Shown one piece after another: positions 36,216 to 46,739 of a stretch of DNA of 64,000 bases (position 1 is its first letter; the number at the start of each line of letters is the position of its first letter). Origin of the DNA: Oscillospiraceae bacterium (GTDB lineage Bacteria > Bacillota > Clostridia > TANB77 > CAG-508); the NCBI GenBank assembly GCA_009778695.1, contig WRFS01000007.1, positions 7,753-71,752 on the forward strand. The letters are read 5' to 3'. The position numbers and the translations under genes were made by a program. The notes under the pieces are model-generated. The model was given only the letters and a program-made list of their open reading frames with translations, did not search any database and was not told where the DNA came from.

Positions 36216-39110
36216 ATGCCGACATTTGGTGAATATGTTGGGAAAGTAACTGTATTAGATTGGTTTAATGACACAGCTGCAGCAGTGCTTAACTGGACAA
36301 TTGGAATGGTAACAATGGGAATTAAAATTCAAGTTATAGGTTGGACATCATTATTTGAAAATACAGTAGGAGAAATTTTAAATTTTGGAACAGAAGATAT
36401 GAGTCAAACAAATGTAGGGGCAACCAGCACTGGCACAGGAGGCACCAGCAGCACTGGCACTGGTAGTACTACTACCAACACTGGTACTAGCACCAATAAT
36501 GGCACTAGTAGTACTAATACTGGTACTAGTTCTGGAGGAAGTTTGTTTAATGTACTAAAAGGAGACCATAAAGTCACAGTAGAAGATGTAATATTTAATA
36601 GAGTTCCTTTACTAGATGCAAATTTCTTTGATTTTGCAAATGCCGGTGGAAAACAATTATCACAAAATAGTTTAATATATAAAGTAAGGCAAGGTATAGC
36701 TGGTTGGTATTCAACATTAAGAACAATAGCAATTATGGGTATGCTAGCAATGCTTATATACATTGCAATAAGAATGGCACTATCTAACGTAGCTGAAGAT
36801 AAGGCAAACTATAAATCTAAATTTGTTGATTGGTTAATTGGATTTATAATAGTATTAACGATACACTACTTTATGCTGGCAATTATAACGATTAATGACC
36901 AATTTGTTAAAATACTTGACTTTTCTGCTAATTCTAGTACTACAAGCACAACACAAAGTGGGACTACAGGTGATGGCGATGAAATGACTGCAAATGAACA
37001 ATTTGGAGCAATGATGCAGGGACTTTCTACAGTTGGGTATACTCAAAAGAATGCAGTTCAACCAGATGATAATAGTCAGAGTATATATGAGACAGTTAGA
37101 ATACAAGCATATGATGTTCAGGCATCAACAGGATGGACAGCAACAATAATATATATGGTATTGGTATTTTTCTTAGTTAGGTTTGTAGTTTTTTATACAG
37201 TCAGATTATTTACATTAGCAATATTAACAATTATATCCCCATTAATGGGTGTATTGTATGCAATGAATAAGAGAGTGTATGCATTAAAGAATTGGGGATT
37301 AGAGTATGGGCATAATGTTTTGATACAACTTGTGCATGCAATAATATACAGTGCGTTTATATCTATTGCGTTACAGCTTACAAAAACGTCAACATTTGTA
37401 GGTGCAATCATAGCAGTAGTCTTTTTGGGCTTTATGCTTAGTGCAGAAGAATTGGTTAAAAAGATATTTAATTTTGGATCGAAATCATTACCTAGTTTAG
37501 CCAATTCATCGTTAATGGCGACAGCCGCAGTTGTTGGAGCGAGAAAGTTGGTTCCAAAATCTATTGGTCTTGCAAAGACCTCTATAACAGGAACTGGAAG
37601 TGGTATAAATTACGTTAGAAATAGACTTAGAGGTACGCCACCTAATGAAGAAGGTGGAGCTCAAAGTGGAATCCATGGCATGCCAAATCTTGGGGGTTCA
37701 GACGGTGGCGGTTCACGCAGCGTGGACTCAGGTGATGGAAACTCAAATGATAGTTCTCCAGATAATAATGGAGAGAACCAAAGTGGAATTGTTATACCAC
37801 CAGAATATGATGAAAGAGGAAATCCAAGTTATTTGACTGCTAGTGATATAGAACAACAAATAAAAGATAAAGAAAAAGAAAAATCAGCTGCAAGAAGAGA
37901 GTTTATATGGAAAAGTGCAGGAAATGCTGTAGGAGGGATATTGGGAACAGCGGCCCTTATGGCAAGTATACCAGTTATTATAGTAAGTCCAACAAAAGGA
38001 TTGGGGATGGCAGGTACTAGTATTTATAGTATGTATAGAGGATTTAAACCAAGTAGGCATAGACTAAAAAGACCAAAGGTTTCTGGGGAATCTAAGAGAT
38101 ATACTAGCGGAAAACTACTATTTGGTTGGGCTTCAGGCGGTGCAACTTTGGCGGCAGGAAGTTTATATAGAAATGCAGAAGGCAGAAAGGCACATTATAA
38201 TATACCTTTAGAGGACCTTAAACAACTAGAAAAAGCACGAGAGTTAGAAGATCAATTAATAAGAGCAATGGCAAAATTTCAACCGACTGCACAAAACCAA
38301 GTTAATGAAGTTATAAAACAAACGAATAATCGAGATCTTGCACAAGCACTAGACATGACCTTTGAGACCGTAACTAAACAAGAAGTAAACCAAGCAGTAA
38401 CAGCATATATTCTAAAAAATAAAGTACTTAATGTAGAAGTAAAAGATATAGAAAAGATAGCAGAACAGGTAAATGACTTACTAAAAGAAGAGGATAAAAA
38501 TCTTATAGTTACAGATCAATTTACAAAAAATTTAAAAGATGAAATTAGGGAAAAAGTTAAGGCAGTTGGTAATTATGCAACAGAAGAAGATTTAAAGAAA
38601 AAGGAACAAAGTGGGGAGACTTCAAGAAAAGCACCTCGTACGAAGGATAAAAATCACGAAACTACAACTGATGGCGATACATTGCGTAAAGAGCATGAAC
38701 GTAAAGATGTTGACAAAGATGAACACGAGAAATCAGAAAGTGTCGATACATTAGAGGAGGCTTTAAAGAAAGCAAAAGAAGAGGAAATTCATACTAAAGA
38801 GAAAGAAAGCCAAGCAGATGCAGAAAGTTTAAAAGATACAAGAAAAGTAATAACGGAAGAAGAATTGGATCAAAAAGTTGAAGAAGCCGTTAAAGGAATG
38901 AGCCATAAAGAAATTATAGAACTTATGACTGAAGCATTACAAAAAGAAGGAAGTATTTATAGAGAAGTACCAGAAAAATATGAACCAGTAATGAAGATAG
39001 TTAAGGACTTAGATGAGGTAAATAAAAATTATGTAGAAAGAACTGGGGAGCCAATTTACCCAAGCATAAAAAATTTAGTAAAATACATACAAAATCAATT
39101 CAATAAATAA
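36216..39110 (+). CDS. VirB6/TrbL-like polytopic membrane protein, paralogue 2, with long charged C-terminal extension
   Basis: T/G/S-rich linker, shared module GIAGWYSTLRTIAIMGMLAMLIYIAIRMALSNVAEDKANYKSKFVDW, then about 480 aa of G/S-rich and K/E-rich tail. Confidence 0.5.
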   Translation: MPTFGEYVGKVTVLDWFNDTAAAVLNWTIGMVTMGIKIQVIGWTSLFENTVGEILNFGTEDMSQTNVGATSTGTGGTSSTGTGSTTTNTGTSTNNGTSSTNTGTSSGGSLFNVLKGDHKVTVEDVIFNRVPLLDANFFDFANAGGKQLSQNSLIYKVRQGIAGWYSTLRTIAIMGMLAMLIYIAIRMALSNVAEDKANYKSKFVDWLIGFIIVLTIHYFMLAIITINDQFVKILDFSANSSTTSTTQSGTTGDGDEMTANEQFGAMMQGLSTVGYTQKNAVQPDDNSQSIYETVRIQAYDVQASTGWTATIIYMVLVFFLVRFVVFYTVRLFTLAILTIISPLMGVLYAMNKRVYALKNWGLEYGHNVLIQLVHAIIYSAFISIALQLTKTSTFVGAIIAVVFLGFMLSAEELVKKIFNFGSKSLPSLANSSLMATAAVVGARKLVPKSIGLAKTSITGTGSGINYVRNRLRGTPPNEEGGAQSGIHGMPNLGGSDGGGSRSVDSGDGNSNDSSPDNNGENQSGIVIPPEYDERGNPSYLTASDIEQQIKDKEKEKSAARREFIWKSAGNAVGGILGTAALMASIPVIIVSPTKGLGMAGTSIYSMYRGFKPSRHRLKRPKVSGESKRYTSGKLLFGWASGGATLAAGSLYRNAEGRKAHYNIPLEDLKQLEKARELEDQLIRAMAKFQPTAQNQVNEVIKQTNNRDLAQALDMTFETVTKQEVNQAVTAYILKNKVLNVEVKDIEKIAEQVNDLLKEEDKNLIVTDQFTKNLKDEIREKVKAVGNYATEEDLKKKEQSGETSRKAPRTKDKNHETTTDGDTLRKEHERKDVDKDEHEKSESVDTLEEALKKAKEEEIHTKEKESQADAESLKDTRKVITEEELDQKVEEAVKGMSHKEIIELMTEALQKEGSIYREVPEKYEPVMKIVKDLDEVNKNYVERTGEPIYPSIKNLVKYIQNQFNK

Positions 39111-39116
39111 TAAACT

Positions 39117-41384
39117 GTGGAAAGGGTATATGATATGAAAATTATAGGAAAGAGAGTGCTAATAATACTAATAATATTTATAATATTGTTTGGTTCAGTT
39201 GTGCCGATGGTTTTTGCCGATACTACAGGTACTACCACATCTGGAACAACAGGTGCAACGGGAACAACGGGAACAACAGGTACATCAAGCACATCTGGCA
39301 CATCAAGTGTATGGGACGGTTTAAGTGCAGCATCAGCTGCTGATGGTGGTGGTAATTTTGGAAGTGATGGTGGTATACAGAGTTCAGCTGTATCTGGAGA
39401 TGTATTAAGCACAATAGCAGACTTTGGTTCAGGAATATTACTATACCCAGTAAGATTAGTAATTATGATAGTTGCTCAAGCAATAGAAACAATAGTAGGA
39501 GTATCAGGTACCAATGGGACAACAGTAACTGCAGAATCAATATTATTTAATGACCAAAATTCAGAGTTAACGAACATAGACTTTTTTAAGCCGGCTCCGA
39601 CAGGTTCATCAACCTTTGTAACCACGTTAAGAAAAAATATCGCTGGATGGTATTATGGAATAAGAACCATAGCAATAATAGTTTCTTTAGCAGTATTAAT
39701 ATACATAGCAATAAGAATGGTAACTGCAAGTATTGCTGACGATAAAGCAAAATACAAAGGAATGTTAAAGAATTGGGCTGTAAGTTTTGCAATAGTATTT
39801 TTACTTCATTATGTTATTATATTAGTAATAAGTGGCAACAATACATTGGTGGCAATGCTAAAGAGTGCATTAGGTACAGGGACATCAAATACAAGTACAA
39901 GTAGTGTAATAGGAGGTTTATTTACTGGTCAAGTAAGTAATGATGGTACGGCTACAAACAGTGCATTTTCAAACTATGTGGCGAGCATAAAGTCCATGGC
40001 AATAGGGAATCTTACAGTTACAACAGGGTTTTCTGCAGCTATAGTATGGTTGATGTTGGAAGCAATAACATTAGCATTCTTTGTAATGTATGTAAAGCGT
40101 TTAATTGTTACTGCATTTCTAATAATAATATCTCCATTAATAACAGTAACATATGCAATAGATAAAATAGGAGATGGCAAGGCTCAAGCCTTTAGTAATT
40201 GGTCAAGGGAGTTTATTTGGACAGTTTTAATACAACCATTCCATTGTTTAATTTATTTAGTATTTGTGGGTGCAGCAGCGGGATTGTTATCGAATGGAAA
40301 CTTAGCAAGTTCAATTGTAGCTATTATGTGTATGTTATTTATATTAAGTGCTGAAGAAATTGTTAAGAAGATATTTGGTATACAATCGTCATCACATATG
40401 GGAAGCATAGCTACTGGAGCTGCATTGGCGGCAGGTGGTATAATGGCTGGAGCTAATTTTGCAAGAAAGACTACAAGTGGTCGTTTAGAAAAAGAAAAAG
40501 AAAAAGAAAAAGCTGGTGGAGCTGGTAACAATATAAAAATGCAAGAACCATCCAGAATAACAGGCGTTAGCGATGGAATAGGCATTGCCCGCGATGCCGG
40601 TAGTGGCGGTGGTGCTGGTGGAGGCGGTACCCCAGGTGGCAGCCCAAGTGTAGGAACAAGTCCAAGTGGCGGAGATTTAAGCACTAGCACATCAACAGAA
40701 CAAGGTTCAGAAAAACTTTCAAACTTAAGGCAAGGATTTGATAACTTTATGAATAGTCGAACTGGCAAGTTTGTTGGTGGATATTTGAAAAAAAGTGCGA
40801 CTATTGGTGCTGGTATATCTGGGGCAACCGTTGCTGCTATACAGTCAAATGGTAATATAGACACAATAGTTGGAGCGGCTACAGGTGCTGGAGCTTTAGG
40901 TGGAGGATTTGCAGAAATGACGGCAAAAAAAGCTGGTGCGGGAGTGAGATATAGATTAGATAAGATAGATCAGAAAAAAAATGCACCTATTATAAAGAAG
41001 ATGGAGCAAGCTAGATTAAAAAACGAGCAAGCTCAATTAAAGAATAACTTAAGTGGTTTAAGTCAGCAATATCAAGCGACTAAAGATGCGGGACATTGGC
41101 AACATGATGAAAAAACGCCTTGGACAGACAGCGAAATAAAAACAAGAGCTGAATTTTTGATGGGTGTTAATTTAAATAATTGGGAATCACAAGGAATACG
41201 TTTTGATAAAGGAGCGTCAAAGGGTCAATTAAATGAGGAAGGACAATTTGCACAACAGTTACAAGAAGTATCTAAACAGTTAAAGGATACAACTGGCGAT
41301 GGAAGTATAGAGAATGTATTAAAACACATGAGAGAACAAGGAGCAAGGGATGAACGAGATAATATGCGCGATATGAATACATAG
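39117..41384 (+). CDS. VirB6/TrbL-like polytopic membrane protein, paralogue 3
   Basis: Signal peptide then a TGT-rich linker. Shared module NIAGWYYGIRTIAIIVSLAVLIYIAIRMVTASIADDKAKYKGMLKNW, and a G-rich tail. ATG 39135 is an alternative start. Confidence 0.5.
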   Translation: MERVYDMKIIGKRVLIILIIFIILFGSVVPMVFADTTGTTTSGTTGATGTTGTTGTSSTSGTSSVWDGLSAASAADGGGNFGSDGGIQSSAVSGDVLSTIADFGSGILLYPVRLVIMIVAQAIETIVGVSGTNGTTVTAESILFNDQNSELTNIDFFKPAPTGSSTFVTTLRKNIAGWYYGIRTIAIIVSLAVLIYIAIRMVTASIADDKAKYKGMLKNWAVSFAIVFLLHYVIILVISGNNTLVAMLKSALGTGTSNTSTSSVIGGLFTGQVSNDGTATNSAFSNYVASIKSMAIGNLTVTTGFSAAIVWLMLEAITLAFFVMYVKRLIVTAFLIIISPLITVTYAIDKIGDGKAQAFSNWSREFIWTVLIQPFHCLIYLVFVGAAAGLLSNGNLASSIVAIMCMLFILSAEEIVKKIFGIQSSSHMGSIATGAALAAGGIMAGANFARKTTSGRLEKEKEKEKAGGAGNNIKMQEPSRITGVSDGIGIARDAGSGGGAGGGGTPGGSPSVGTSPSGGDLSTSTSTEQGSEKLSNLRQGFDNFMNSRTGKFVGGYLKKSATIGAGISGATVAAIQSNGNIDTIVGAATGAGALGGGFAEMTAKKAGAGVRYRLDKIDQKKNAPIIKKMEQARLKNEQAQLKNNLSGLSQQYQATKDAGHWQHDEKTPWTDSEIKTRAEFLMGVNLNNWESQGIRFDKGASKGQLNEEGQFAQQLQEVSKQLKDTTGDGSIENVLKHMREQGARDERDNMRDMNT

Positions 41385-41543
41385 ATGACGGATACAACAT
41401 AACAGAGAATATTAATAGATTGGAAGTGATATGTATGATTGAAAGATTTGATGATCCAGAAAAAAATATAGATAAAAAAAGAAATGAGGTTGTTGACGAT
41501 AGAACAATAGAAGAAAAACGATTTGACAACCTAAAGTTACATC

Positions 41544-44500
41544 ATGAAATTTTCACAAAACGGAGATCGTAATCGTGATGTCAAGGCTGATGAAGAAAGA
41601 CAACAAACATTAGTAGAAGCTGTACAATCAGGTGTTCAATCTCATGTAGAAAAAGTGGGAAAGCAAAGTTCTTTGGAACATGAAGAAGACGAAGACGAAA
41701 TAAATAAATCAAGGAGAAAAGAACTAAAAAGGAAAAAGCAGGAAGTAGCTGATGAAAAGAAAAAGCAAAGAGAAGAAAACGATGAAAGTAAAAAACGAGA
41801 AAGGTTAGCAAAACAAAGGCAGCAAAAAGCAGATCAAAAGCAAGCTTCAAAAGATGTGCAAGAAATAAGAGAACAAAAACAGGAGGAAAACCAGAGAAAA
41901 AAATTTGGGAACAAAAGCGTTGAGACAGCAGGTAAATATGGAGGAATTGATACTCCAATTAACAATAAGACAAAACAAAAACGTTGGAAACCAATTAGTA
42001 AAAGCCATAGGTCAAAAGATCTAGGTCTTGCAAACAATAGTGGGAAAGGATTAAATGATGAGAAAACAGGCAAAGGTGTTGAGGCTACTTCTGCGAAAAT
42101 AAATGGAAAACCAGAGGATTCAAACAACCAAGGTACAGGACAAGCAGGCAATAATGCACAAGATATTGTTGCTGCGATATTAGGTGGCGTTGGTGTTGGT
42201 AGTGTTGGCGGATTGGATGTACAAGTTCAAAATGGAGGGAAAAAGCCAGTAGCCAATATTGTTACAGAAAGTGTAGGCTCAAATGCACAAAGTGCTGGAA
42301 CAAATGGGCCAGTAGGAGGCGAAGACACAGATTCTTCACAAAACAACTCAAATAAAACGCCAGAAGCTGGTTCAGGTGTTAATACTGAAAATAATGGTCA
42401 AAATATAAAAAGTCCAGAAACAGACGAAGATCCATATAGTGGCATTTTTGGTAACAATTCAAATGAGAATGCACCTACAGATACTCCTACAGATATTCCT
42501 ACAGATACTCCTACAGGCACAACGGGGCCATCTGCAAGAACGCTTAGAAATCCTGGAGATATACCAATAGTTCCACCCGTTGCATTAGGTGGATATTTTG
42601 GAAGAAGATTAAATAATTTAAGAATTAGAAATAATACTGGTATTACTAGCGGTAGGTCTGTCAGCAATTATGGTAATAGTAGCGAAACTATGGATGATGC
42701 TGGTGAAAGTACGAGCCCTGCTAGTTCAGGGGCATCTGGTGGATTTATGGATCAAGCCAGACAAATCGGGGATAAGGGAACAAAAGCTGGCAATGCAGTT
42801 ATGAGGACTATACAAGCTAGCAAATTTGCAATGTGGTTGGCAGGAACTCCAGTTGGATGGGTTATTGGAATTATAGCAGCAGCAATAATTATTATATTAG
42901 CATTTATAGGGGCGGGTTCATTTTTATTAAATATGCCAAGTATGGTTAAGGATAGACTTCTTGCATCCACTAATGAGTTTTTTCGCTCTTTAAAAGGGAT
43001 AGTAACGGGGGAACAAACAAAAATTACCGAGCAACAAATTAAGGTATTAGGAACATATTTACAAAATATGGGGTATGATTTAAAATATTATGGTTTTGCA
43101 GAAAGCCTAACAAAAGATGCTAATGGAAATATAACATCTATACAGTCAAAATATTTATCAGCATATATGGCAGCAGAAGAAAGAAGTTATTTGTTTGGAA
43201 ATGAAGGTGTAAGTGTATCAAATATATTTGAGAATTGTTTTAGAGTAGTTACAGGTCAGCAAATAAAATGGGGAGTGGGAATGATAGTTCTAGATCAAGA
43301 TACTCTTACTAAAACTATTACTACGAAGGTATTAAAAACAACCAATGCAAATCCAGACGGTTTGTTTTCAAGTGTTATTCAAGATTTAAATACGGCAATA
43401 GAATGGACTCCAATAGGGTTTGTTGCTAATAATTTAGGAAGTACTGCTCAAAACATATTAGAAAGGGCTCAAATTAATCGTGATACTCAAGAATTAATTC
43501 TTGGAAGTCTTAACGTAAAAGTAAAGATTTGGAATACAGGGTATGATGTTTATAGATTTAGTTTAAAACAATGGATAGAAGACTATGGTTCGCCAATGGA
43601 ATTGTTTCTAACATTGCATTTAGCAACAAGAGCTCCTGAGTTTGTATATAACATGGCAACAACTTATGATACAAGAGTATATGTAAATACAAAAACAATT
43701 GATGATGTGCAAGTAAGCCTTGTAAAGGTAGATAAAGATGCTAATAATAACGTTATATTGGATTCAAATGGAAAACCTAAAATGATTCCACTTACTGATG
43801 CGGATTTGAAAGGAATTACGGGATCAGGACCGAATGAGATACAAAATTTTAATAACACAAGCATAAATGTCTTTACACCATATATTACAACAGTGGAAAA
43901 GAATTGGTATTATGATAAAGTAATATTTCAAGGGACTGCACCTAATGGGCAAGCTATAGATGTATATAAAATGGAACCAATAGATCCAAATAGTCCTGGT
44001 GCTGTAAGATATTATGCATATACACAAACGTTAAATAATGATGCGACACAGGTTGGGCAACAAACACAAGAAGTACCAGCAAGTTCTAGTAGTGGTGGTT
44101 TATTTGGTGGTGCAATTGGTAATTTACTTAGCAATGTGTTTTCAAATTTTGGAGGAATTGCAGGAACAATAGGAGGGAAAATATCTAGCGTTATTCAAGA
44201 TGCTGGGTTTGGTAGCTTAGGGGGGTTAACAGGAAGCATAACCAACGGGTTTGGTGCAATATCAAATGGTATGTTTCAAAATCTAGATTCTAGCCTTTTA
44301 TCAAACATTTCAAATAGCTGGACACAAGGATTTGGGAACTTAAATATTAGCCAAATAACTAGTTCATTGAACCTTAATAATATGTCAAGTTTGTTTAATA
44401 CAAATAATCTTCTTCAGGGCTTAAATTCGCTTGATACATCAAAGTTTAATTTAACTGGAATAACTAATATTAGCAATTTATCTAGTTTAACAAGTCAACT

Positions 44501-46739
44501 TAACATGTCTAATTTGAATAGTGTTCTTAATACAACTAACATAGGAAATGTTATTAATTATAACGGAATGAATATCGATTCAATAGTAAACAATATGTAT
44601 CAAAATTTTAGCCCAAGTATGTTAAAGAATCTGGATAGCCAAGTATCATCTATGATGAGCCAAATGTTTGATTTATCTAATCCAGCTGATGCTACTACAT
44701 ATGCAAAATCATTAACAGATAGCTTATCTAAACAAATTGTTGATAATACAGCAGCAAGTTTTCTAAACCAAATAAGTGCTCAAGTACAGCAAACAATTGC
44801 GGGGCAACTTAATTCGCAACTTGTACCAGGATTAGAAAATGAATTTTCGAGACAAATATCTGGACTAAGCATGGCTCAACTTAATTCTTTAGCTTCAATA
44901 AACAATATGGACTTTAATAGTGTAGAAAACATATCAAACAAAGTATCAAGTTTACAAAGTGCATTAAATGCGACAGATAATACGGTTCAAAATTTATCAG
45001 ACGTATGTAATAAGATTACTAAAAGCATGACCGGACAAGATTTAGCAATGATAAATAATGCAATAAAAACACAAAATATAGATGATGTGGTAAACAATGC
45101 AAGTTCAAATTGGTATGGTTTAGATAAAGACACATTGTTAGATTTTGTAAATAGAATGAATAGTATAGATCCATATCAAAGTGGTCTAACATCAACAATA
45201 GATGAGATGAAAAAAGACACCGATAGTTTAGATGTGCAGGATTTAAAGGGATTATGTGATAAGTTATCAGCATATATTAAAAGTTCAGGAGATGCTTTTA
45301 ATGGAATGAATGGATTACTTGATTCTGATAAAAATGATTTATCTAATAACTTAAATAAATTATATTCTTCTCTTAATCTAGTGACTAATTGTGTAAACGG
45401 TTTGGATATTAATGCTTTAACTAATATTAAGAGTAAAGTAAGTGGTATTAACAGTCAACTATTAACTGGATTGGGTGCTCAATTATCAGGAATGGCAAAT
45501 TCAACCATAAATAACTTAATTAACCAAATTAAGAGTATGCCAAATCAAATAATTAGCAACTTACAAAATCAATTGACTACGCAAATATCACAAGGTTTAA
45601 AGCAAGCTATATCTCAACAATTATCAGACAAGTTATCAACAGATTTATTTAACAGTTTAAACACTGGAAATAGATTAACGCAGATAATGGCACCAAGTGG
45701 TGGTAATGTACAACAAGGAGATCCAACTGAAATAGATCAACCTACTGAAAATAGTACTACGGAATATGCAACAGGACTCTATGTTAAAGAAGTAAGAAAA
45801 GAGGATTATATACAAAAAGCTGAACCTATAAGAATACCATATAATACTCAGCATTGGATAGATTTATTTATTAAAGATAAATATATTATAGTTGGTAATG
45901 ATAATATAGATATTAGTAGATTAGCCGATCCAACTTATATGCCAAATGATAGACAAAGTGTTTGGCAAGCAACAAATGGACATCTTGACACTATAATTTA
46001 TGGAATGCTAGATAGTGTAGGGGATGTAGATTCTCAATATTTGTTGAGGGACTTTAAAGAATTATTTACAGATAATGGCTGGGCATTGCAAAATGCATAT
46101 AATAAGCAAAACAATGCTACTAATACTAGTACGACAACGACAACTCAAAGCACATCACAAACTTTGGCAGCAAGCGAAGCTTTTAGTTGGATATTTAAAA
46201 CAACAGCAACGAAACAAACAATCAATACAAACACAGGAGTTACACAAACAGTGTTAAAAGCAACATATGAACCATATACATGGGTAGCTAACACAATGGG
46301 TATATTAACACCAATAACCGAAGATAAAGTATATGGATTTAATAAAGGGTTAGATGTGATTTCTCCAGTTAGTGGTGTAGTTATATCAAAAACAGATCAA
46401 ACTAAAAATGAGTTAGGACAAATAACACCATCAAGCATTACAATTGAGGTGAGAAATAGCGGAGATAAAGATGCAGATGGTATGAGAGTTGTTATAATGG
46501 GCATAGACATTGGAAGTAACATAGTACCTGGTATGCAAGTATATAAAGAAAGCCTAACCAGTACGGGAAGTGCAACAGTAATAGGAACAACAGGAACAAG
46601 TGAAATTAAAATAATGGTGTTATCTAAGAGTGACCATACAATGGTTTCAAATATATCTGACTTTTTGAAACCACCACAAGAAATGCGTTTTGATGCTAAT
46701 GGCAATCAAGTTGATTCTCAAGGGAATCCGATAAAATAG
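41544..46739 (+). CDS. Giant T4SS-cluster protein (1731 aa)
   Basis: Parts in order: K/E/R-rich N-terminus; low-complexity linker with TDTPTDIPTDTPTG; TM helix (WLAGTPVGWVIGIIAAAIIIILAFIGAG); a large N/S/L-rich external region; and a C-terminal LytM-like fold lacking the metal-binding His (NKGLDVISPVSGVVIS...TGTSEIKIMVL). Confidence 0.55.
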   Translation: MKFSQNGDRNRDVKADEERQQTLVEAVQSGVQSHVEKVGKQSSLEHEEDEDEINKSRRKELKRKKQEVADEKKKQREENDESKKRERLAKQRQQKADQKQASKDVQEIREQKQEENQRKKFGNKSVETAGKYGGIDTPINNKTKQKRWKPISKSHRSKDLGLANNSGKGLNDEKTGKGVEATSAKINGKPEDSNNQGTGQAGNNAQDIVAAILGGVGVGSVGGLDVQVQNGGKKPVANIVTESVGSNAQSAGTNGPVGGEDTDSSQNNSNKTPEAGSGVNTENNGQNIKSPETDEDPYSGIFGNNSNENAPTDTPTDIPTDTPTGTTGPSARTLRNPGDIPIVPPVALGGYFGRRLNNLRIRNNTGITSGRSVSNYGNSSETMDDAGESTSPASSGASGGFMDQARQIGDKGTKAGNAVMRTIQASKFAMWLAGTPVGWVIGIIAAAIIIILAFIGAGSFLLNMPSMVKDRLLASTNEFFRSLKGIVTGEQTKITEQQIKVLGTYLQNMGYDLKYYGFAESLTKDANGNITSIQSKYLSAYMAAEERSYLFGNEGVSVSNIFENCFRVVTGQQIKWGVGMIVLDQDTLTKTITTKVLKTTNANPDGLFSSVIQDLNTAIEWTPIGFVANNLGSTAQNILERAQINRDTQELILGSLNVKVKIWNTGYDVYRFSLKQWIEDYGSPMELFLTLHLATRAPEFVYNMATTYDTRVYVNTKTIDDVQVSLVKVDKDANNNVILDSNGKPKMIPLTDADLKGITGSGPNEIQNFNNTSINVFTPYITTVEKNWYYDKVIFQGTAPNGQAIDVYKMEPIDPNSPGAVRYYAYTQTLNNDATQVGQQTQEVPASSSSGGLFGGAIGNLLSNVFSNFGGIAGTIGGKISSVIQDAGFGSLGGLTGSITNGFGAISNGMFQNLDSSLLSNISNSWTQGFGNLNISQITSSLNLNNMSSLFNTNNLLQGLNSLDTSKFNLTGITNISNLSSLTSQLNMSNLNSVLNTTNIGNVINYNGMNIDSIVNNMYQNFSPSMLKNLDSQVSSMMSQMFDLSNPADATTYAKSLTDSLSKQIVDNTAASFLNQISAQVQQTIAGQLNSQLVPGLENEFSRQISGLSMAQLNSLASINNMDFNSVENISNKVSSLQSALNATDNTVQNLSDVCNKITKSMTGQDLAMINNAIKTQNIDDVVNNASSNWYGLDKDTLLDFVNRMNSIDPYQSGLTSTIDEMKKDTDSLDVQDLKGLCDKLSAYIKSSGDAFNGMNGLLDSDKNDLSNNLNKLYSSLNLVTNCVNGLDINALTNIKSKVSGINSQLLTGLGAQLSGMANSTINNLINQIKSMPNQIISNLQNQLTTQISQGLKQAISQQLSDKLSTDLFNSLNTGNRLTQIMAPSGGNVQQGDPTEIDQPTENSTTEYATGLYVKEVRKEDYIQKAEPIRIPYNTQHWIDLFIKDKYIIVGNDNIDISRLADPTYMPNDRQSVWQATNGHLDTIIYGMLDSVGDVDSQYLLRDFKELFTDNGWALQNAYNKQNNATNTSTTTTTQSTSQTLAASEAFSWIFKTTATKQTINTNTGVTQTVLKATYEPYTWVANTMGILTPITEDKVYGFNKGLDVISPVSGVVISKTDQTKNELGQITPSSITIEVRNSGDKDADGMRVVIMGIDIGSNIVPGMQVYKESLTSTGSATVIGTTGTSEIKIMVLSKSDHTMVSNISDFLKPPQEMRFDANGNQVDSQGNPIK

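Follow-up and report, generated by a model that had tools for sequence, protein, structure and literature searches.

What role can a 1731-residue membrane protein play in a type IV secretion system (T4SS) operon when the only enzyme-like domain that it carries appears to be dead? The question is raised by a gene on the plus strand of the window, the 64,000-nucleotide stretch of contig WRFS01000007.1 (Oscillospiraceae bacterium, assembly GCA_009778695.1) that was analyzed here. Our findings suggest that this giant protein is probably a membrane-anchored, wall-facing subunit of a chromosomal, MPF-FATA-like T4SS, a counterpart of the conjugation protein PrgK that lacks a catalytic module. Four observations carry this reading: the gene is a fixed member of the operon, its product has one transmembrane helix, the protein family includes members that bear hydrolases, and the C-terminal domain has a LytM fold without the zinc ligands.

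The place of the gene in the operon is highly regular. It follows VirB4 as the sixth gene, at the distal end of the operon, in a series that runs VirB4, p399, p364, NlpC/P60, p964, p755, giant gene, p179, and p315, and this order from VirB4 to p315 is repeated in 12 loci from different genomes, gathered from gut metagenomes and from species genomes that bear the titles "uncultured Clostridia bacterium" and "Candidatus Merdicola faecigallinarum." The VirB4 proteins of these loci are 79–87% identical to that of the window, whereas the giant protein shares 22–31% identity. In loci L001–L011, the other T4SS proteins share 22–55% identity with those of the window against the same 79–87% for VirB4, an unusually sharp contrast between the ATPase and the envelope components. 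The membrane proteins encoded after VirB4, two of them large, weakly match VirB6-like families from mycoplasma integrative and conjugative elements (ICEs), and the operon opens with an array of four VirB2-like pilin genes, a layout described so far for Patescibacteria (PMC12102498).

Downstream of the giant gene, p179 and p315 follow at spacings of 16 and 14 nt. Their products share an outer domain of ~105 aa (hhalign 98.5%, E 2.6e-15), and the two genes flank the giant gene, before or after it, in 11 of the 12 loci and wherever the flank is present. Both proteins may be VirB8-like partners of the giant protein, a label that is unproven because PDB profile searches and permissive Pfam searches with the two sequences returned nothing decisive.

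The system as a whole appears to belong to the chromosome of this lineage. Because the VirB4 of this locus (61–87% identity) occurs in 116 of the 120 genomes sampled from the taxonomic family, with genome sizes of 0.6–1.9 Mb, and in 50 of 50 genera, the T4SS is, judged by the presence of this gene, a near-universal core machine. No coupling protein, relaxase, or integrase was found within the 64-kb window. Matches to type IV coupling proteins in this genome lie on other contigs (C14, C20, and C1, plus weaker ones), and its only PF03432 relaxase is located on C20, beside another VirB4.

The architecture outlined in the first-pass annotation, which had been made from the letters of the DNA, is present in all its parts: a K/E/R-rich start, a G/N/S/T-rich linker, one transmembrane helix, about 1200 aa outside the membrane, an N/S/L-rich region, and a beta-rich end. 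The 1731 codons are open under genetic code table 11; an alternative code in which TGA is sense was considered and set aside, as it leaves the reading frame unchanged. Residues 1–200 contain 17% K, 12% E, 10% Q, and 7% R, with a net charge of +11, and are followed by the linker (aa 201–436), which includes TDTPTDIPTDTPTG at aa 312–325 (nt 42477–42518). This presumably cytoplasmic tail is the least conserved part of the protein, with 12–20% identity to close homologues. The helix at aa 437–462 is the sole strong hydrophobic segment (Kyte-Doolittle maximum 2.97) and is followed by 1269 aa on its C-terminal side. A sequence scan found no signal peptide, and from this absence together with the topology of PrgK, we infer that the K/E-rich tail lies inside the cell.

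Beyond the helix, an N-domain, the N/S/L-rich insert, a helical domain that we call D2, and the LytM-like domain follow one another. The insert (aa 861–1395) consists of 15% N, 14% S, and 13% L, and its hydrophobic period of 3.8 residues, slightly above the shuffle range, suggests a helical structure. The quasi-repetitive NLxS pattern noticed in the first reading proved to be weak but real: a Smith-Waterman comparison of one half with the other gives z = 4.0, and the 8 copies of NLxS compare with an expectation of 3.1 (z = 2.9). D2 is kept in every branch of the protein family, and its model helices reach predicted local distance difference test (pLDDT) values of 64–76. Sequence and profile searches of Pfam, PHROGs, and the PDB with the full-length protein, an alignment of its family, and the profile of its LytM domain returned coiled-coil noise only.

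The C-terminal domain is best recognized by its fold. In an AlphaFold2 model spanning aa 1400–1731, with a 13-row alignment as input, aa 1576–1714 are beta-rich and pLDDT reaches 80–91 over aa ~1600–1700. The comparison with M23 structures that had been proposed for this segment was made with Foldseek against the PDB, where the top 27 matches are all M23/LytM folds (probability 0.98–1.00, TM(target) up to 0.61). The first of them is the degenerate LytM domain of DipM (E 5e-5, TM(target) 0.59); the LytM domain of EnvC (TM(target) 0.61), Csd3, Csd1/Csd2, lysostaphin, ShyA, and SpoIIQ are also among the top matches. Similarly, the structural matches in BFVD are M23 lysins. At the level of sequence profiles, hhalign aligned the LytM-like profile with that of six true M23 domains from the same genome at E 1.4e-4 and in the expected motif register, with GFNKGLD over GFHTGLD and V.PG..V...IG over V..G..V..G..IG. 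The structural and profile matches bear out the C-terminal LytM/M23-like domain first read from the translation.

The same register supports the earlier observation that Asn and Glu/Lys replace the metal-binding His residues. Asn1600 stands at the first His of HxxxD, Asp1604 is retained, and the strand corresponding to HxH reads EIKIM. Among 46 aligned family domains, none has His at any zinc-ligand column; the first ligand column is occupied by E, D, K, or N, and the Asp of HxxxD is retained in 18. Despite this loss, the domain is the best conserved segment of the protein, with 45–51% identity to close homologues compared with 31–32% overall, 35–44% for the N-domain, and 21–28% for the insert, and it recurs in 69 of 155 family members. 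Because the fold is kept, the His ligands are lost, and the segment is the best conserved, the model and the alignments identify it as a LytM domain that is non-catalytic and yet under selection. By analogy with characterized proteins, the likely task of such a conserved dead domain is binding or regulation and not cleavage of the wall. Two relatives connect it with active enzymes: P0039 is matched by the true M23 profile as well as by the dead-LytM one, and in P0101, a metagenome protein of 868 aa, an intact M23 domain (HxxxD and HLHFE), likely the ancestral state, takes the position of the dead one.

The extracytoplasmic N-domain defines the protein family. Its invariant motifs are MPGMV, YLxxMGYDL, W..xYG.P.EhhLxhHhAT..P, and TPYIxxVxxHWY (PYIxxVxxHW). 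A word-indexed search of 5.8 billion proteins returned only eight relatives, all unannotated. When a profile built from the transmembrane helix and the ~400 residues after it was run in a full HMMER scan, 683 cluster representatives matched, mostly 700–2000 aa long; of these, 435 reached E <= 1e-30. The N-domain has no Pfam model, and among open-access papers and preprints we found none describing this family or this Clostridia T4SS. With a broad profile, the N-domain is present in 53 of the 120 genomes and 23 of the 50 genera of the taxonomic family; its presence is mostly all-or-none within a genus, among the genera listed, and its gene usually lies ~10 kb from VirB4. It was not found in about 390 genomes of other Clostridia families, and tblastn gave no match in 72,556 plasmids or 50,697 phage records. 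One stretch, YG.P.EFLL..H.AT, was considered as a degenerate SLT helix and rejected for now, with an hhalign probability of 0.06% against the only SLT domain of the genome.

Relatives of the giant protein carry a variety of wall hydrolases. Modules detected in 36 sampled members are Hydrolase_2 (5), CHAP (4), C39_2 (3), Phage_lysozyme2 (2), Glucosaminidase (2), Peptidase_M23 (2), and Phage_lysozyme (1). The N-domain is followed by Peptidase_M15_4 and GDSL in L006, by CHAP in L010, and by Peptidase_C39_2 in L026, at the place that the ~530-aa insert occupies in the window's clade, to which the insert is restricted. It is also lacking in short members, L007 and L009 among them (~800–850 aa), which consist of the N-domain and D2 only, with a LytM-like domain in addition in L009. 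As read from domain composition, the family is a mix-and-match set of wall-acting T4SS proteins, and the window's clade, which has no catalytic module, carries the N/S/L-rich stretch in the place of the enzymes found in other members. What is new here is that an unannotated family of T4SS wall proteins has a member that bears the insert and no enzyme; the LytM fold and the parallel with PrgK build on what is known. The features discussed are located in the table.

Table. Position and supporting evidence of the features in and around the giant gene (window coordinates; SD, Shine-Dalgarno).
Feature	Position	Strand	Evidence
1731-aa open reading frame (ORF) as assembled	41544..46739	+	open frame, table 11
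Presumed cytoplasmic tail, K/E/R-rich then G/N/S/T-rich	41544..42851	+	composition, charge
Single transmembrane helix, aa 437–462	42852..42929	+	Kyte-Doolittle scan; aligns with the transmembrane helix of all homologues
Family-defining extracytoplasmic N-domain, aa 463–860	42930..44123	+	invariant columns
N/S/L-rich, probably helical insert, aa 861–1395	44124..45728	+	composition, hydrophobic period
Helical domain D2, aa 1407–1530	45762..46133	+	motifs YV+E.R...Q.AEP and LRDFKELF
Degenerate LytM/M23-fold domain, aa 1576–1714	46269..46685	+	AlphaFold2, Foldseek, hhalign, ligand-column census
45-codon ORF plus stop in another frame; probable true 5' end	41435..41575	+	SD-like motif, acidic start
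Rest of the T4SS operon	26874..41384	+	Pfam/NCBIfam matches, synteny
Four TrbC/VirB2- or T4SS_pilin-type genes	26874–28836	+	Pfam/NCBIfam
PrgI-family (VirB3-like) gene	28849–29196	+	E 9.6e-6
Protein resembling the N-terminal part of mycoplasma-ICE VirB4	between the PrgI-like and VirB4 genes	+	
VirB4 ATPase	30483–32510	+	P-loop_TraG/AAA_10
Secreted NlpC/P60 endopeptidase, same operon	35126..36175	+	signal peptide; Cys and His kept
Two bitopic proteins, 179 and 315 aa	46756..48257	+	synteny, shared outer domain

A scan for promoters and terminators found such sites no more often than expected by chance.

The operon supplies an enzyme of its own. The first reading had placed an NlpC/P60 enzyme ~5 kb upstream, and the gene is indeed there, 5.4–6.4 kb upstream of the giant gene, with the catalytic Cys (FDCSS) and His (GHVGIY) retained. 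By analogy with PrgK, we propose the following arrangement as a working model. The K/E-rich tail would lie in the cytoplasm, and the N-domain would sit at the membrane, docked to the machine, perhaps through p179 and p315 as PrgK is docked to PrgL. The ~530-aa helical insert would project D2 and the dead LytM domain into the wall or all the way through it, where the latter may bind peptidoglycan, gate the separate NlpC/P60 enzyme, or both, and the wall would be opened only at the machine.

Several points weigh against this interpretation. No catalytic domain is detectable in the giant protein of the window by Pfam, PHROGs, or PDB searches, so it lacks the defining feature of VirB1-like hydrolases and can be placed only as working in the VirB1 position, not as a VirB1-type enzyme. 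The hhalign match to M23 has a probability of only 52%, and the Pfam M23 model (PF01551) gives no match at E <= 1 in the giant protein or its 8 closest homologues. The N-domain model is poor (pLDDT 52.6) and Foldseek found no matching PDB fold for it; a domain with no assigned fold could hold an unrecognized activity. Orientation, the reach of the insert, peptidoglycan binding, and the effect on NlpC/P60 are proposals by analogy. Finally, the assembly has the gene's 5' end out of frame, so the copy might be damaged.

Among the other explanations, the one that survives best, although we consider it clearly secondary, is that the protein serves as a contact arm or adhesin, whose outer part would extend beyond the wall of the producing cell and whose dead LytM domain would hold on to partner-cell peptidoglycan, keeping the T4SS or pilus pressed to its target. 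It overlaps with the reading as a PrgK-like subunit and differs only in whose wall is bound. The divergence of the giant protein next to a conserved VirB4 in the same loci speaks for it, and such fast evolution typifies surface components that come into contact with other cells. The near-universal presence of a T4SS with no relaxase or coupling protein nearby points the same way, as does the finding that predicted peptidoglycan hydrolases are adhesins in lactococcal conjugation (PMC11067333; PMC12857230). However, the LytM domain evolves more slowly than any other part of the protein, a pattern not to be expected of a tip specific to a partner, and Pfam matched no known wall-binding or adhesin domain. 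A bolder form of the idea, which we consider somewhat less probable again, sees the giant protein as an outward arm that evolves fast and belongs to a T4SS both domesticated and non-conjugative, with the dead LytM domain recognizing the wall of another bacterium. If that were true, a machine kept by every member of this family of gut Clostridia with small genomes would serve a partner-dependent lifestyle like that of Patescibacteria rather than DNA transfer.

It is doubtful, and less probable than either form of the contact idea, that the gene is decaying, with a real frameshift at its 5' end and a copy in the process of being lost. As the first-pass annotation stated, ATG 41544 has no good ribosome-binding site: no SD-like motif precedes it, and most genes of the window have one. 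An in-frame TAA (41532–41534) bars any earlier start in the long frame. The small overlapping ORF that had been reported is present, one base away from the coordinates given for it (41434–41574). An SD-like GGAAGTG (41422–41428) lies 6 nt upstream of its ATG at 41435, homologues have GGAGGTG 7–10 nt ahead of their start codons, and its first residues, MIERFDDPE, resemble acidic N-termini of the family such as MMYFYDDPED and MRFYDDED. The peptide aligns with close homologues no better than shuffled sequences do (Smith-Waterman z about 0), so the case for a frameshift is carried by the SD-like motif and the acidic start only, and the support for an upstream start reached by a frameshift is indirect. 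ATG 41435 is the probable true start; a +1 shift within 41535–41572, a segment with T4 and A4 runs (41551–41562), would join it to the long frame. Scans of metagenomes for another copy of the start region found none.

Decay would also account for a second +1 shift in the operon. In four close relatives, NlpC/P60 and the VirB6-like gene (36216–39110 in the window) form one fused ORF of 1354–1437 aa that reads through as VVWPKDMVLEDQILATSEGYFYKG. The two are parted in the window by one additional base at CCAAAAGG (about 36152–36165): the NlpC/P60 frame reads VVWPK followed by GRTNYS and a stop, and the other frame continues as KDGLTIADDPLINSQGYFYKG (VVWPK followed by DGLTIADDP). The only gene with an SLT domain in the genome (contig C24:2798–3110; L034 and L035) is likewise split between two frames, at model position 67, a further sign of either assembly indels or gene decay. 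Against decay, the 1731 codons are open and collinear with the homologues, a product started at ATG 41544 would lose only ~36 residues of a poorly conserved tail, and all the shifts fall at short A/T/G runs, as expected of assembly indels, which appear to be the simplest reading of them. A separate interruption was noted in mfd (window 16953–21273), which is split into two frames at 18257/18322; a GC-rich hairpin element headed by GTAGGGG is inserted at the split, and the ORF downstream runs on into a SpoU-type methylase domain.

The first-pass annotation had offered the protein as a scaffold, a substrate or effector, or a tape-measure-like ruler. The scaffold, or partner of a hydrolase, fits the T4SS context and PrgK, the effector is unsupported, and the tape measure persists as a faint echo. 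That the protein is a T4SS substrate released from the cell is very unlikely: it is large, has no known function, and is encoded beside a T4SS that lacks a relaxase, but it has a strong internal transmembrane helix conserved in all homologues, a fixed operon position, a PrgK-like build, and relatives that carry wall hydrolases, as is typical of machine parts. Least probable of all is that a phage tape-measure or tail-lysin protein survives here in remnant form as a ruler of length, a reading suggested by the M23-ending tape-measure proteins among the best BFVD matches (Bacillus phage Basilisk, E 1e-4) and by the phage origin that the authors of the PrgK study proposed for its modules (PMC11323569), but largely refuted by the genomic context, since the window contains no phage genes, the synteny is with T4SS genes, the protein has no PHROG match, the N-domain is missing from the phage records searched, and the structural alignments, although they span 330 columns, have an rmsd of 22–27 Å.

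The PrgK-like subunit thus remains the explanation that we prefer. Switching wall-cutting enzymes is a known role of dead LytM domains, and here the idea is met with every enzyme removed from the protein, in a fixed part of a T4SS that 116 of 120 sampled family genomes carry. The locus offers a clean setting for the question of how a LytM domain without catalysis contributes to a Gram-positive secretion machine, whether by wall binding, enzyme gating, or contact with a partner cell. To our knowledge, the wall-spanning components of Gram-positive T4SSs are still poorly defined, and these findings add an unannotated domain family, represented by 683 clusters, to their parts list.

Comparison with known systems places the giant protein closest to PrgK, a VirB1-like protein of the DELTA class with 871 residues, which by its build appears to be the closest described analogue. 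PrgK of the Enterococcus faecalis plasmid pCF10 comprises a cytoplasmic domain, one transmembrane helix, a LytM domain seen by crystallography to be degenerate, a muramidase, and a CHAP domain, and its LytM domain has neither HxxxD, HxH, nor metal and finds its best structural match in DipM (PMC11323569). The LytM and CHAP domains regulate the muramidase by restraining it, and PrgK binds the VirB8-like PrgL (PMC11323569; PMC12857230); the dead LytM domain of PrgK thus down-regulates an enzyme rather than activating one (PMC11323569). Both genes belong to a Gram-positive T4SS operon in which VirB4 precedes them and a gene for a small bitopic protein follows, with p179 and p315 occupying the place of prgL after prgK; both proteins have a long, poorly structured N-terminal part, cytoplasmic in PrgK and presumably so in the giant protein, one transmembrane helix, and a large part beyond it; and DipM is the best structural match of both LytM domains. 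They differ in that PrgK has an active muramidase and CHAP domain and the giant protein neither, in the ~400-aa N-domain, D2, and ~530-aa helical insert of the latter, and in the position of its LytM domain, which is C-terminal and not next to the membrane. The parallel is one of build, fold, and operon place.

Other wall-acting components of conjugation are TraG of pIP501, CwlT of ICEBs1, Orf14 of Tn916, and TraAd/TrsAd of lactococcal plasmids, some of which are adhesins (PMC12857230; PMC11067333), and VirB1 homologues with M23 and LysM domains are mentioned for the T4SSs of Patescibacteria (PMC12102498). The giant protein resembles the former group as a wall-acting part of a Gram-positive machine, but those are small two-domain enzymes on mobile elements, whereas it is giant and enzyme-less and belongs to a chromosomal T4SS that has neither relaxase nor coupling protein close by.

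In fold, the LytM-like domain is akin to those of EnvC, NlpD, DipM, and SpoIIQ, which have likewise lost the zinc ligands. EnvC and DipM activate amidases or transglycosylases; we know of no NlpC/P60 endopeptidase described as a client of a dead LytM domain. The giant protein has neither the coiled coil of the EnvC type nor a LysM architecture, and it belongs to a T4SS rather than to division or sporulation. SpoIIQ of Bacillus subtilis, for its part, is a bitopic dead-LytM protein that forms a structural part of a trans-envelope channel.

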